64,000 nt of DNA from IMG/VR virus record IMGVR_UViG_3300022602_000027. The stretch is one strand, 5' to 3'. This DNA is from a virus (Duplodnaviria > Caudoviricetes). The translations under genes and the position numbers were made by a program. Positions 10,852 through 60,818 of this stretch are shown piece after piece. The notes below the pieces were generated by a model that had not been told where the DNA came from, ran no database searches, and worked only from the letters and a program-made list of their open reading frames with translations. How positions within the stretch are numbered: the stretch's first letter is position 1; the number at the start of each line of letters is the position of its first letter.

Positions 10852-11483
10852 TATCTTGCTCCCTTCATTGGATCAGTAATCTTATTTTGTTTTGTTCCAA
10901 TAGGACTAGCATGAGCTGTTTCCAACTTAGCTTGTTTTTCTTTACGATATTCTGGAGCAAGACCAGGAACGTCTTTAGCTAGGATCTGATCATTATATCC
11001 TTTGACTTGCGTACCTTGATGTTTTTCTTTGCCTAATTCTTTTAGTAATTGATATTTGTATTCGTCATTAACTAAGTTACTATGATTGCTAGGTTCTTGT
11101 TCTTTACCAACTAGAGCTTTACCACTTTTTGTATCATACTCGTGATTTATTTCATATTCTCTTTCTTCTGCTATGCTTCGAACTTTAACATGATTATGCG
11201 TAATTCCTAGTCCTGTAGCAACACGGTCACGAATTTGTAACCCAGTTGCTGGATAGTCTGTAGAAACATCATACACAGTCATTTGTGTATTTCTGTGCTC
11301 TGGAAATTCTGCTTGACGCTCTTGAATTGGAGTTGTTTTGCCAGAAGAAACTGACTGCACGTGGAATTCAGCAAGAGAGGCTTTGATTTGCTCTACTGCG
11401 TCTTTGGCGTGATCGCCAGCAATTTTAATCTTAAATTCATAGATTTTTTTGCTTTCTGTTAAGTATTCTTTAAATGATTTCAT
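10851..11483 (-). CDS. Probable internal head protein with a capsid-targeting-like N-terminus
   Basis: N-terminus MKSFKEYLTE resembles the T4 IPII/IPIII targeting sequence MKTYQEFIAE; TAAATA at 11507-11502. Confidence 0.55.
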   Translation of the reverse strand: MKSFKEYLTESKKIYEFKIKIAGDHAKDAVEQIKASLAEFHVQSVSSGKTTPIQERQAEFPEHRNTQMTVYDVSTDYPATGLQIRDRVATGLGITHNHVKVRSIAEEREYEINHEYDTKSGKALVGKEQEPSNHSNLVNDEYKYQLLKELGKEKHQGTQVKGYNDQILAKDVPGLAPEYRKEKQAKLETAHASPIGTKQNKITDPMKGAR

Positions 11484-26481: not shown

Positions 26482-27270
26482 ATGGATTCAAATTTACCAA
26501 TCGAACACTCACAAGAAACTCCAGTTGCGGTTAAACCAAAACGCCCTTTAGAAATTATCTATTTGGAAAATGTTGCCCGCTCAGACACATTTGCTAATGT
26601 ACTAGGGGATACTGATAAACCAGGTTGGGAATTTGGAAGAATGACTGACGAAACCGAAGATAAAGATACTGCTATTATGTTCTGGCAACAAAATATGCAA
26701 CGTAGTAGTTGGTGTTCTGAAGTTTTATGGTATGAATTATTAGCTAAATTAGAAGAAACTCATCCAGCTACAAAAAATTATCAATTTAAAGTAAAAGATG
26801 TTACCTGCGGCGGAAAAACTTTTGGCCAAGATGGCGGTATTCATACTGATTACGACTTTCAATTTACAGAAGAGGGTGACGGTTGGATGACTGTTTGTTT
26901 CTTTCCTAATAAAGAGTGGAATCCAGAATGGGGCGGAGAGTTTCAATTTTTTAATGACGCAGGGGATGTAATTGCAAGTTATTATCCAAAACCTAATACT
27001 GCGCTTGTATTTGATTCTAATATTCCGCATAGAGGTTTAGCTCCAACTCGTAATTGTAACAGATTGCGCAAATGCTTAACTTTTAAAACTTTTGTACATA
27101 AACAATGGTTTTTAGAATCCAATCCAGATGTAAAAATGATTGACGGTAGTGTTGTTCCCGGGCTAGTTAGTACACCAACAAGAACAGACATGGGTAATAC
27201 TAATTCTCCTGAACCAGCGGCAATTTTTACAGATCCAACGGCACCAGCTAAGAAAAATATTGTAGGTTAA
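26482..27270 (+). CDS. Prolyl-4-hydroxylase-like 2OG-Fe(II) oxygenase
   Basis: IHTD, WNPEWGGEFQFF, PKPNTALVFDSNIPHRG, RKCLTFK. Confidence 0.85.
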   Translation: MDSNLPIEHSQETPVAVKPKRPLEIIYLENVARSDTFANVLGDTDKPGWEFGRMTDETEDKDTAIMFWQQNMQRSSWCSEVLWYELLAKLEETHPATKNYQFKVKDVTCGGKTFGQDGGIHTDYDFQFTEEGDGWMTVCFFPNKEWNPEWGGEFQFFNDAGDVIASYYPKPNTALVFDSNIPHRGLAPTRNCNRLRKCLTFKTFVHKQWFLESNPDVKMIDGSVVPGLVSTPTRTDMGNTNSPEPAAIFTDPTAPAKKNIVG

Positions 27271-57613: not shown

Positions 57614-58669
57614 TTATCCTAATGTCAGTGCTGTTTGTACGCCAATATCTTGAGCAGTACTTGAAGTTACACCACTGCTACTACCAGCAACACTTCCCCA
57701 GGTTGAGCCATTATAAACTTCAACATACCCTTGATCAGTATTAAATCGAATCATACCGGTTGTTTCATACAACGATGATGGGCGATTTGCTGTAGTACCT
57801 ACAGGAATTACAACTCCGTAAGTTCCATTAAATTGAAAGTAGCCGCTTCCTGTGTTAACAAATTGTGTTACGGCATTGTTAGAAGTATTTGTAAGTGTAT
57901 TTGTTGTAAATCTTAAATTACCTACTACAACACCTGCTGAACCAGTTGTATTAAAAACAACATCTGTGTTGCTATTAATGGCGCTGATACTGTTTCCAGT
58001 AATAGTTAGTCCACTAGTATTTGCAGTTGTAGCGTTAACTGTTGTAACGTTTGCTGTTGTTGATGTTAATGTGTTGGTATAGACATTTGCCCAAGTTAAA
58101 CTATTTGAACCTAATGTATATGTATTTGTTACTGATGGCAAAATATTACTATTAACTTCGCCAGTAAATGTAATAGTATCGTTGCTAGCGGCACCTAATT
58201 GAATATTTCCATCAGCCGTAATATTTCCAGTAGCATGTAAATTACCAGTTACTAGTACATTTGAATTTAGATTAATTACACCTGTACCATTAGCAGTAAA
58301 ATTAATAGCACCGCTCGCATTAGTAGATGCTAGAGTATTTCCAGTTAGACTTAAATTACCAACTAACGCTGTACCTTGATAGATAGTAGCATTTGATCCT
58401 TGTGGACTAAATGTAATTGTTGAGTTGTTAGTTGAAATTGTGCTACCTGAAAAGGTTAGCAATCCTAGTGTAGCTGACCCACTAGTGTATAAATTTGTTG
58501 TTCGGGTAGTTCCATTAACTGAGAGATCGTTCGTTGGACTAGAAGTATTAATACCCACGCGGCTATTAATAACATCTAAATAGAGAAGGTTCGTCTCGAA
58601 GGCTAAATTTTGCCCGTTGCGGAGCAAATTATCCTTTAAGAGCGGACCGGAAATTCGACCAACAGCCAT
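57614..58669 (-). CDS. Fibre/baseplate-associated structural protein (351 aa)
   Basis: GRISGPLLKDNLLRNG, RVGINTSSP, C-terminal GTTANRP...GMIRFNTD..VEVYNGSTW; AAGGAG SD. Confidence 0.7.
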   Translation of the reverse strand: MAVGRISGPLLKDNLLRNGQNLAFETNLLYLDVINSRVGINTSSPTNDLSVNGTTRTTNLYTSGSATLGLLTFSGSTISTNNSTITFSPQGSNATIYQGTALVGNLSLTGNTLASTNASGAINFTANGTGVINLNSNVLVTGNLHATGNITADGNIQLGAASNDTITFTGEVNSNILPSVTNTYTLGSNSLTWANVYTNTLTSTTANVTTVNATTANTSGLTITGNSISAINSNTDVVFNTTGSAGVVVGNLRFTTNTLTNTSNNAVTQFVNTGSGYFQFNGTYGVVIPVGTTANRPSSLYETTGMIRFNTDQGYVEVYNGSTWGSVAGSSSGVTSSTAQDIGVQTALTLG

Positions 58670-58785
58670 GAGCTCTCCTTGTACCCCCGTGTTTCACGGA
58701 TAACCACCTTTTCATCCCGTATAATTAGGGCTCTTTGCGGGTTTACCACAGTCGGATATCGTAATGCTTGGTCAAGCACTACAGT
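58670..58785 (-). ncRNA. Putative structured cis-regulatory 5' leader RNA
   Basis: About 115 nt, more GC-rich than its surroundings, between TAAATA (58796-58791) and the SD; several stems (GTAGTGCTT/AAGCATTAC, GTGG/CCGC, CCC/GGG, CCGTG/CACGG). Confidence 0.5.
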
Positions 58786-58820
58786 ATTAGTATTTAGCTG
58801 TTTTGATTTTTAAGGGTTGA

Positions 58821-60818
58821 TTACCCTAAGATTAAGTCCCAAGCATACATGGTATCGTTAACTTGGCTTTGAGTTAGTACCGCTGAAGTTCCTCCTACAG
58901 GATTCCAACTTGTTCCATTATAAACTTCACTGTAGCCTAGTGTTGAATTATATCGAACTTGCCCTTGAACTGGACTTGCGGGATAGTTGCTACTTGTACC
59001 TGCTGGAAATACAACACCGTTATTTCCTGTAAATTGAATATATCCATTTCCTGTGCTACTAAATGTTACTGTAGAACTAGGAAATGTTATGGTATTAGCT
59101 GTATTAAAATAATAGTTACCATTAAAATTTAAATATCCTGTACCAGAAGTACTAAAACTAATATCACTATTAGCGGTATTAGTAATAGTATTACTATTAA
59201 AATCAATATTTCCAGCAAATAAATCTGTTACAGTTACAGTAGTTGCGGCTAATGTTGTAGCAGTATCTATAACAGAATATAAATTACTCCATGATAAATT
59301 AGGGCCACCACTGACTGATAACCCATAAGTTGCGCCAACTGCATTGTAGTTATTTGTTATCTGTGTACTATTAAGTGCAACATTGTACACACGCATAGCA
59401 TAGTATGTACCAACACAGTTATCAGTAGGACCAATTCCACTGTTAGCATGTCTTGATGCAAAATATAATCCAGTAGTAGCATATCCTCCGCTAGGCCCTG
59501 TAAATGTTTTTGTACCTAATGATGTACCATTCTGATAAACTGTTACACTTGTTCCACTTATTACAAAGTCCCATACATTTATGTTTGTAATATTGGATAC
59601 AGTAAAATTAGCTGTTCCACTAGCACTACCAACGTTCAGAGATGTTGTTGAAAGAAAATATGCAAGGTACCCTTTTCCTGCGGACCAACTGTCATTGCCC
59701 CACATTGTTGACCAAAAAGTAGTTGGGTTAAGTGATGCAATCATACTAATAGTAAATGTATTGCTAGAAATATTATACACTGTAGAAATATATGTACCAG
59801 TTTCACTACCGCTAATACTAATTCCACCACCATCGTTACTTGTGTAACTCAAGTACGAATTATTACCAGCTAATGTTCCATTATTGCTGTTACCCGAAGT
59901 ATCAGTCCAAGTTGTTCCAACTGTAGCAGTACTAGGTGCCGTAGCTAAATTAATTTGTAAACCAGTTGTAATTATTGCAGGAGCACTACCTGCACTACCT
60001 AATGTGTAAGTATTAGTAACATTAGGTAAAATATTACTATTAACTTCTGCGCCAAACGTAATTGTTTCAGCGGCATTGGCGCCAAGTGTAATATTGCCGT
60101 CCCAGGTAATGTTTCCAGTAGCGTGTAAATTACCATTAGCTGTTACTTGAACACTGCCATTACCGTTGGCAAAATTAATTAATCCAGTTGTAGTTTGTGA
60201 AAAAGAGTAACTAACTCCAGATGAAAATACACCATTAGAAATAGTTATTGTAGTTGCCCCAGCATTAACATTAGTTACTATCCAAGTTGGTTGCCCAGTT
60301 ACATACCAAGTACCGTCTGCGGTGACTTGAGTTAAATTATTAGAACCAGTAAATCCAGAAGAAAACAATCCAACGTTGGTACTTGACCCTGATACATCTT
60401 GATAACTATTGGTTGTAATTGTAGAAGTATTAGGAGTAATGTTAATACTATCATTAGTTACAGTATCACTAAATGTATTACCATAAAGATATAAATTACT
60501 TGTACTTAGACCAGGTGTTACAATGCTAGGATTACTATTTTGACTAGGACTAATTGTAATAGTTGTTAGTACTTGCTGAATTGTACTACCGCTTACTACC
60601 CAATTTTGAATATCAGCAATATTATCAACTATCAAATTAGTTGAATCAATCGCACTAGGTGCGTATAAATCGCTAACTGGTGCATTATTGTTAGTACCAA
60701 TTCGTTTATTAACTACGTCAAGGTACAGAACTTTATTGTCAAATGCTAAGTTTGATCCATTACGTAGTAAATTATTTGCTAGTAATGGACCGCCTATTCT
60801 ACCTTGTTGGACGGACAT
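58821..60818 (-). CDS. Paralog of 57614-58669 carrying a LamG/concanavalin-A-like insertion (665 aa)
   Basis: GRIGGPLLANNLLRNG N-terminus; WTDTSGNSNNGTL...FTISMI...MRVYNVALNSTQITNNYNA; GQVRYNS..SEVYNGTSW. Confidence 0.7.
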   Translation of the reverse strand: MSVQQGRIGGPLLANNLLRNGSNLAFDNKVLYLDVVNKRIGTNNNAPVSDLYAPSAIDSTNLIVDNIADIQNWVVSGSTIQQVLTTITISPSQNSNPSIVTPGLSTSNLYLYGNTFSDTVTNDSINITPNTSTITTNSYQDVSGSSTNVGLFSSGFTGSNNLTQVTADGTWYVTGQPTWIVTNVNAGATTITISNGVFSSGVSYSFSQTTTGLINFANGNGSVQVTANGNLHATGNITWDGNITLGANAAETITFGAEVNSNILPNVTNTYTLGSAGSAPAIITTGLQINLATAPSTATVGTTWTDTSGNSNNGTLAGNNSYLSYTSNDGGGISISGSETGTYISTVYNISSNTFTISMIASLNPTTFWSTMWGNDSWSAGKGYLAYFLSTTSLNVGSASGTANFTVSNITNINVWDFVISGTSVTVYQNGTSLGTKTFTGPSGGYATTGLYFASRHANSGIGPTDNCVGTYYAMRVYNVALNSTQITNNYNAVGATYGLSVSGGPNLSWSNLYSVIDTATTLAATTVTVTDLFAGNIDFNSNTITNTANSDISFSTSGTGYLNFNGNYYFNTANTITFPSSTVTFSSTGNGYIQFTGNNGVVFPAGTSSNYPASPVQGQVRYNSTLGYSEVYNGTSWNPVGGTSAVLTQSQVNDTMYAWDLILG

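Follow-up and report, generated by a model that had tools for sequence, protein, structure and literature searches.

The 127-nt non-coding leader of a fibre-like gene in an uncultured T4-like large phage (positions 58670-58796 of the 64,000-nt stretch of DNA analysed here, the window) was shown by comparison with its relatives to form, as RNA, a hairpin close to the 5' end (P1), an H-type pseudoknot composed of two helices (S1 and S2), and a second hairpin (P4) shortly before the ribosome-binding site. It is probably the 5' untranslated leader of a late tail- or baseplate-fibre mRNA, acting in cis on the translation of that gene, and the reading best supported by the sequences is that of a cis-acting translational operator which would sequester the ribosome-binding site. 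A structured leader at this position had been proposed in a preliminary description made from the letters of the window alone; it is indeed present and conserved, and all of the elements listed there were found, namely P1 (58761-58782), GUGGUAAACC (58741-58750), GUGGUUAUCC (58698-58707), CCGUG-AAA-CACGG (58687-58699) and the Shine-Dalgarno (SD) region (58672-58679).

The gene content of the window includes tail sheath, terminase and giant fibre proteins. The genes around the leader, and all leader features described below, are located on the minus strand. The leader lies between a T4-type late promoter box (TAAATA, 58791-58796) and the start codon (ATG, 58669-58667) of a 351-aa open reading frame (57614-58669), the product of which begins with MAVGRISGPLLKDNLLRNG. 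This product matches PHROG families of unknown function and has no match in Pfam or PDB, and the neighbouring genes match tail-fibre families. The G+C content of the leader is 45%, compared to about 36-38% in its surroundings, in agreement with the enrichment noted earlier. Upstream, a 665-aa open reading frame ends with a stop codon at 58821-58823, which is enclosed by a hairpin (GGGU-AAUCA-ACCC, 58814-58830) followed by UUAAAAAU; this hairpin is below the criteria of the terminator scan and is not kept in relatives. The TATAAATA-like box of a T4-type late transcription unit is present as CTAAATA (58791-58797) and represents a putative promoter, from which transcription probably starts, by analogy with T4, about 6 nt downstream of TAAATA. 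The box is found at the same distance in every collected leader, the apparent universality of both TAAATA and the SD being inflated by the regular expressions used for collecting, which demanded both. At six other genes of the window the distance from TAAATA to ATG is 24-38 nt, as opposed to 127 nt here, which agrees with T4-type late leaders being short elsewhere in this phage. The start codons of these six genes are located at 11483, 18005, 19919 and 47672 (minus strand) and at 26482 and 29441 (plus strand), and the genes with short leaders include those for the tail sheath and for a 3932-aa fibre protein.

A protein-guided scan of IMG/VR yielded 80 loci, all of which carry the leader or its 3' part in one copy each; two of these loci are cut at the 5' end, and one (L044) retains only the last 29 nt of the leader. 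Leaders added by two scans of IMG/VR with DNA patterns, in which the protein was ignored, raised the total to 106 unique sequences. Every one of them, including those collected by DNA pattern alone, precedes an open reading frame starting with MA(V/I)GRI(S/T)GPLLK (consensus start of all 106: MA(V/I)GRI(S/T)GPLLK.NL.R.G..LAFE). The conserved part of this reading frame comprises the 32 N-terminal amino acids (32 codons), and the total length ranges from 347 to >3989 aa, which suggests a fibre gene with a conserved attachment end and an exchangeable distal part. In metagenomes, at least 563 relatives of the fibre N-terminus were detected, and the leader was present in 74 of the 80 loci examined from among them; two of the other six are without upstream DNA. 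The leader precedes this fibre gene in hundreds of phage contigs from fresh water and the sea (lakes and oceans), with a single copy at each locus searched. Its conservation greatly exceeds that of the protein, for which identity is 41% in some relatives.

Among isolated phages in GenBank, neither a full-length relative of the gene (protein searches) nor the leader (megablast with the region and searches with the leader DNA) was found. In bacterial and archaeal genomes, the freshwater leader pattern gave no match and the marine pattern three confirmed ones. Two of these are located on contigs of the metagenome-assembled genome (MAG) 'Candidatus Neomarinimicrobiota RS350' (L319:3082-3207 on PBPT01000016, 335 kb, and L324:1533-1658 on PBPT01000082, 153 kb). 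A tail sheath gene of the T4 type is present twice in the same MAG and shares 53% identity with that of the window, for which reason the contigs look phage-derived, either as phage contigs binned into a bacterial MAG or as a phage infecting that bacterium. The third match, also with the leader, is a 29-kb contig of a Dehalococcoidia MAG (L321). Some of the marine variants (L396, L400 and L401, at about 320-453) begin the gene with GUG and show an extra hairpin, GGGAGAGAUACCC, nested inside P1 beside the GACC motif.

Folding of the window's leader as a single sequence was not better than that of shuffled sequences (z = -1.15, +0.74 and -0.69) and is uninformative when taken alone; the case for the structure therefore rests on comparison with relatives. 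For this purpose, 100 IMG/VR leaders were aligned with a covariance model that contained P1, a local helix P2 and P4 only. In this alignment, 92.0% of the pair cells were canonical and the covariation amounted to 0.444, compared to 0.159 in shuffles, none of which (0 of 500) reached 0.444. The 70 distinct metagenome leaders gave closely similar values (92.8% canonical; covariation 0.458 against 0.158 in shuffles, 0 of 500). When the pairing partners were slid, the covariation dropped to about 0.05-0.11 (0.05-0.08 in the IMG/VR set). Both conservation and covariation of homologous leaders, on which the preliminary description had made its proposal depend, are thus strong.

P1, the hairpin at the 5' end (GUAGUGCUU-GACC-AAGCAUUAC, 58761-58782, 9-10 bp), covaries in all nine modelled pairs, e.g. 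column 38-78 with AU36/UA27/CG15 and column 23-86 with CG55/UA27. Its loop (GACC at 58770-58773) reads G(A/G)(C/U)C in 96 of the 106 leaders and GACC in 89. P4 (CCGUG-AAA-CACGG, 58687-58699), which directly abuts S2, is likewise supported by covariation (column 173-197: CG64/GC35), and marine relatives have GGGAC...UCCCC or GGCAC...UGCC at this place. The closing pair of P4 is non-canonical and covaries (A.G51/GC30/UU11). No further helices were found when all positions were compared with each other by mutual information, and pairing of the 5' end with the GUAU tail to close the structure was unsupported in this comparison.

Of the pseudoknot, helix S2 was no part of the search model. Positions were counted as a1-a18 and b-7 to b9 from the G of the first and second GG(U/C)... 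motif, respectively, and anchored mutual information in the 106 leaders gave the first sign of the knot, a covariation of a11, the base after AACC, with b-1, two bases before the downstream GGUU. In the 100 IMG/VR leaders this pair occurs in five canonical types (CG44, AU36, GU11, GC4, UA1) with four non-pairs, and in the 70 metagenome leaders as CG30, AU22, GU8 and GC7 with one other. Its state changed at least 25 times on the tree of the fibre N-terminus, and seven of seven independent contrasts point the same way (p about 0.016). The pair belongs to S2, the 5' strand of which is UAAACCC (58739-58745, core AACCC at 58739-58743) and the 3' strand G-(U bulge)-GGUUA, followed by the U that closes P4 (58700-58707). 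In rare variants, changes in pairs of S2 that are invariant otherwise are compensated on the opposite strand, as in L358 (GGCC(C)/G-bulge-GGCC), L398 (GGAC(C)/G-bulge-GUCC), L382 (AGCC/GGCU) and L384 (UUGCC/GGCAA), so that compensatory changes back all pairs of S2 except one. The pair a6/b5 depends on the lineage: most marine forms have U-A, L354, L383 and L400 have C-G, and in freshwater leaders like that of the window the two bases are a mismatch (A.A).

S1 consists of 3 bp between UGU (58748-58750) and GCA (58736-58738), the latter following the 5' strand of S2 without a linker. Its outer pair was canonical in all of the 100 leaders (UA90/AU6/CG3/GC1), and six of six independent contrasts have the same direction (p about 0.03). 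An extension of S1 by a local GG/CC pairing, as proposed by RNAalifold, was rejected, since it is lost in L358, L382 and L398, which retain S2. The order of the strands is thus S1 5', L1 (GG), S2 5' (AACCN), S1 3', L3 and S2 3' (N'-bulge-GGUU), i.e. the topology of an H-type pseudoknot, backed by the covariation of both helices. L1 (58746-58747), which would cross the deep groove of S2, is GG in all of the 106 leaders, with GA or GUA in three rare variants. L3 (58708-58735) is A-rich and contains an optional, variable hairpin, P3 (58716-58730), which is weak in the window (CCC/GGG); in relatives, the number of hairpins in L3 varies from zero to two, or a longer insertion occupies this place. 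Conserved in L3 are an A at a15, a G at a17 and two A's before the 3' strand of S2. A small open reading frame in the leader was discarded, the insertions in L3 not being multiples of three, as was a tRNA-like reading of GGUUAGAG, for which ARAGORN was negative and no partner for a D-stem was found. S2 and P4 probably stack on each other.

The pseudoknot changes the interpretation of two motifs to which the preliminary description had drawn attention. The two copies of GUGGUWAWCC reported there are both present; they are not repeated sites, however, but contain the two strands of S2, and since they covary with each other as a helix, a pair of twin binding sites for a protein is ruled out. The CCGC following the first copy had been thought to choose between the upstream and the downstream GUGG. 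Instead, this segment pairs both ways simultaneously: its last two bases and the following A form the GCA strand of S1, which pairs with the upstream UGU, and its first two C's together with the preceding AAC form part of S2, which pairs downstream. Pairing of CCGC with the downstream GUGG in the register originally suggested works only if a11 is C, and the conserved register is AACC(N)/(N')-bulge-GGUU. The mutually exclusive folds derived from this choice found no comparative support, the local GG/CC being lost in rare variants in which S2 is kept by compensation.

Pairs of the G-U type occur on the leader strand only (e.g. UG90 in S1), which indicates that selection acts on the RNA, or on a single strand. 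This bears on the idea that promoter, leader and N-terminal codons form a conserved linker at the level of DNA, which serves as a homology arm for the swapping of fibre genes between phages. T4-type phages have mobile regulatory cassettes, and the conservation of the leader and the first 32 codons in front of a gene of such variable length would suit this idea. Compensatory changes, strand-specific G-U pairs and variable stems with maintained pairing, on the other hand, show selection on RNA structure rather than on DNA identity, and as the explanation of the leader a homology arm appears highly improbable; such a role could coexist with one of the RNA.

Rfam 15 gave no hit on the whole window at the gathering score, none at E <= 10 on 58600-58900, and none on the leader in seven divergent loci at E <= 1, in line with the earlier remark that no recognisable riboswitch or ribozyme consensus is matched; a hit to a described family, the other outcome that would have spoken against the preliminary proposal, was thus not obtained. 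A small, pseudoknotted and highly conserved phage fold that matches no known family might be taken for a self-cleaving ribozyme of a new type or for a small RNA in its own right. It always occupies the same register, though, with the promoter on one side and the SD and start codon of a single gene on the other, no ribozyme family is matched, and no terminator follows (no intrinsic terminator was found in the terminator scan), which makes this explanation extremely improbable. HDV-like or other ribozyme topologies were rejected, the strand order being unsuitable and a family match lacking.

Two candidate contacts link the leader to the coding region. The SD region (AGGAGAGC, 58672-58679) is complementary to CGCUCUU in codons 9-11 (CCG CUC UUA; 58638-58644, +26 to +32), hereafter the anti-SD. 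The mean duplex energy of the SD with +26 to +32 is -8.25 kcal/mol, compared to -3.5 +/- 1.3 kcal/mol for the remainder of the gene's first 140 nt, which makes this segment the best partner within them. The SD region takes the form GAGAGC(G), GGGAGCG or, in marine leaders, AAGAG, and the duplexes amount to -8 to -13 kcal/mol in most of the freshwater forms. The second contact is a candidate loop-loop interaction between (C)GACCAA of the P1 loop and the complementary UUGGUCG in codons 3-5 (58656-58662, +8 to +14).

Synonymous sites are unusually fixed in the first twelve codons, often in favour of codons that are rare elsewhere in the same genes. At codon 9, CCG is used in 90 of 101 sequences, compared to 9% of all other prolines, and at codon 10 CUC in 89 of 101, compared to 3% of all other leucines. 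AAG makes up about 75% at codon 12 (21% of lysines elsewhere). Codon 4 is GGU in 102 of 103 sequences (41% of glycines elsewhere), and codon 5 is CGN in all 103, with AGA accounting for 35% of arginines elsewhere. The translational role assumed in the preliminary description thus gains support from a complementarity between SD and coding region that is enforced by rare codons. Compensatory cases in this duplex are few: GAGAGCU/AGCUCUU (L087 and L108), GGAGAGA/UCUCUU (L313, L316 and L263) and AAAAG/CUUUU (several marine leaders). The register of the duplex varies between lineages, so that no column-by-column score is available, and some sequences are mismatched. In the window's full-length minimum free energy fold, the anti-SD is paired with AAGAGC of L3 instead of the SD; this pairing is not general, because the AAGAGC segment is absent from relatives with a minimal L3. 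Pairing of the SD with codons 9-11 of its own gene is accordingly supported by the sequences, less firmly than the helices of the leader.

A similar grade applies to the contact of the P1 loop with codons 3-5, which is supported mostly by the two conserved complementary motifs. Compensatory cases are L037 (GAUCGA/UCGGUC) and L013 (GACCG/CGGUC), and the only exception at codon 4 (GGA, in L090) is found in a leader without the GACC loop. In the clade without this loop, codon 3 is GUA or AUA and not GUU or AUU; GGUCG is nonetheless kept. In several lineages (e.g. L012:2880-3003 and L253:560-688), the bases just after P1 read UGGUUA, GGGUC or GGUCC; they are complementary to GACC(A) of the P1 loop and resemble the UUGGUC target in codons 3-5. 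In some lineages UGGUY comes after P1, and its pairing with the P1 loop is sterically excluded, as there is no linker to span the stem of 9-10 bp.

Four metagenomic orthologs (L357, L361, L364 and L397, at about 420-490) lack the structured leader and have an ordinary late leader of 28 nt. They encode lysine (AAA) in place of Arg5, use UUA, CUU or CUA at codon 10, and have ordinary codons 9-11. Since these leaderless orthologs have lost the constraints on the coding region, the latter depend on the leader, and the four loci are best regarded, from their sequences, as natural cases in which the entire device is absent or has been lost. The codon pattern also weighs against an element for mRNA stability or processing, in which RNases that depend on the 5' end would be kept off the late fibre transcript by the 5' hairpin and the knot, or a processing cut would be guided by them, with no direct effect on ribosome binding. 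Bacterial and T4 mRNAs are stabilised by 5' hairpins, and P1 would be only a few nucleotides away from the putative 5' end. Such an element leaves unexplained the rare codons of the anti-SD, their complementarity to the SD and the loss of both in the leaderless orthologs, and a stabiliser would not need near-invariant loop bases; it is considered very unlikely.

For the translational operator, the following mechanism can be envisaged. As a scaffold, the rod of pseudoknot and P4 would hold P1 close to the start region. Base pairing between the SD and codons 9-11 would form a loop, inside which codons 3-5 would probably be contacted by the loop of P1; with both contacts in place, the ribosome-binding site would be shut within a single compact fold. 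The closed fold might hold down the translation of a low-copy structural protein, with a low output despite the strong late promoter; alternatively, translation might be off until the fold is opened by a factor, by processing or by a physical condition. Against this reading, the pseudoknot does not touch the SD, so that the role as a scaffold is a conjecture.

A related explanation is a riboswitch-like or protein-responsive switch, with the knot as an aptamer. By binding a small molecule, an ion or a protein of phage or host, it would open or close the start region and so make the synthesis of the fibre depend on the condition of the infected cell. The knot is a compact one of the H-type with a near-invariant GG in L1 and conserved A's in L3, its sequence is conserved far above that of the protein, and the downstream SD/anti-SD helix resembles an expression platform. 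In some pseudoknot riboswitches a variable hairpin is inserted in L3, as is the case here. In contrast, no Rfam riboswitch is matched even at the relaxed threshold, the gene is structural and not metabolic, and the invariant loop bases are explicable as base triples that merely stabilise the knot. Moreover, no covariation was found for a second, exclusive fold, the alternative GG/CC being lost where S2 is kept, and no other comparative evidence for a second fold was obtained. A switch of this kind is regarded as unlikely, and as quite unlikely the more specific proposal of a new riboswitch-like class in uncultured T4-like phages, with the pseudoknot as its sensor domain and a small molecule, ion or protein that opens or closes the clamp on the start site of a host-recognition fibre gene.

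Several known systems share features with the leader described here. The gene 32 pseudoknot of T2, T4 and T6 is also an H-type knot in the 5' leader of a T4-type phage gene and acts in cis on translation, as the present leader probably does; it serves as the nucleation site for protein that binds cooperatively to an unstructured, A/U-rich stretch. There is no sequence likeness between the two, and the gene concerned encodes a fibre protein here and the ssDNA-binding protein gp32 there. Furthermore, the leader of the window follows a late promoter, and its knot is followed at once by the covarying P4 and by an SD complementary to the coding region, in place of an unstructured A/U-rich operator. 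The operators of E. coli rpsO (S15) and of the alpha operon (S4) are likewise pseudoknotted mRNA leaders and govern the access of ribosomes to the start site, as is proposed here. They are found on genes for ribosomal proteins, extend into the ribosome-binding site and serve as binding sites for the gene product, whereas the leader here belongs to a fibre gene and its knot is separated from the SD by 20 nt (end of S2 at 58700, start of the SD at 58679).

With H-type riboswitches (preQ1-I/II, SAM-II/V, fluoride and guanidine-III) the leader has in common a small knot, an A-rich L3, conserved loop bases and tolerance of a hairpin insertion in L3. It differs from them in that no covariance model is matched, the SD lies outside the knot and the context is not metabolic; the association with genes for ligand metabolism or transport that is typical of riboswitches is absent, all 106 leaders preceding the same fibre-type gene. 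In the T4 late genes soc, e, 49 and I-TevI, hairpins at the ribosome-binding site hide the SD in local secondary structure, as may be the case for the SD of the present late gene. There, the late promoter is located inside the hairpin, so that late transcripts escape sequestration, whereas here the promoter is 127 nt upstream, both arms are contained in the late transcript and the anti-SD is located in codons 9-11.

A survey of IMG/VR by Fremin et al. 2023 (PMC10690425) reported 8495 candidate structured RNAs, among them cis-regulatory candidates upstream of GP20 and GP32 genes. The text of that paper, in which the word 'tail' occurs zero times, mentions no fibre-gene leader; as far as this text allows a comparison, the leader may be one of the unnamed DNAVirus_N candidates. 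A literature search for the sequence of the motif returned unrelated primers only. Lacking the defining features of each of the systems likened to it and without a match in Rfam, the leader is classed here as a new RNA family among the cis-acting pseudoknotted translational leaders.

Tail fibres decide the host range of a phage, and to our knowledge almost nothing is known about the post-transcriptional control of their synthesis. The leader offers a compact RNA of about 170 nt, with a knot, a hairpin probably stacked on it and two candidate contacts into the coding region, and with the leaderless orthologs as a natural control. If it responds to a factor, it would represent a new class of phage regulatory RNA, and if the reading as a sensor is true, conditions inside the infected cell would determine how the phage adjusts its apparatus for adsorption. 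If the leader is not responsive, it would still illustrate clearly how rare codons near the start codon become fixed for the sake of RNA structure.
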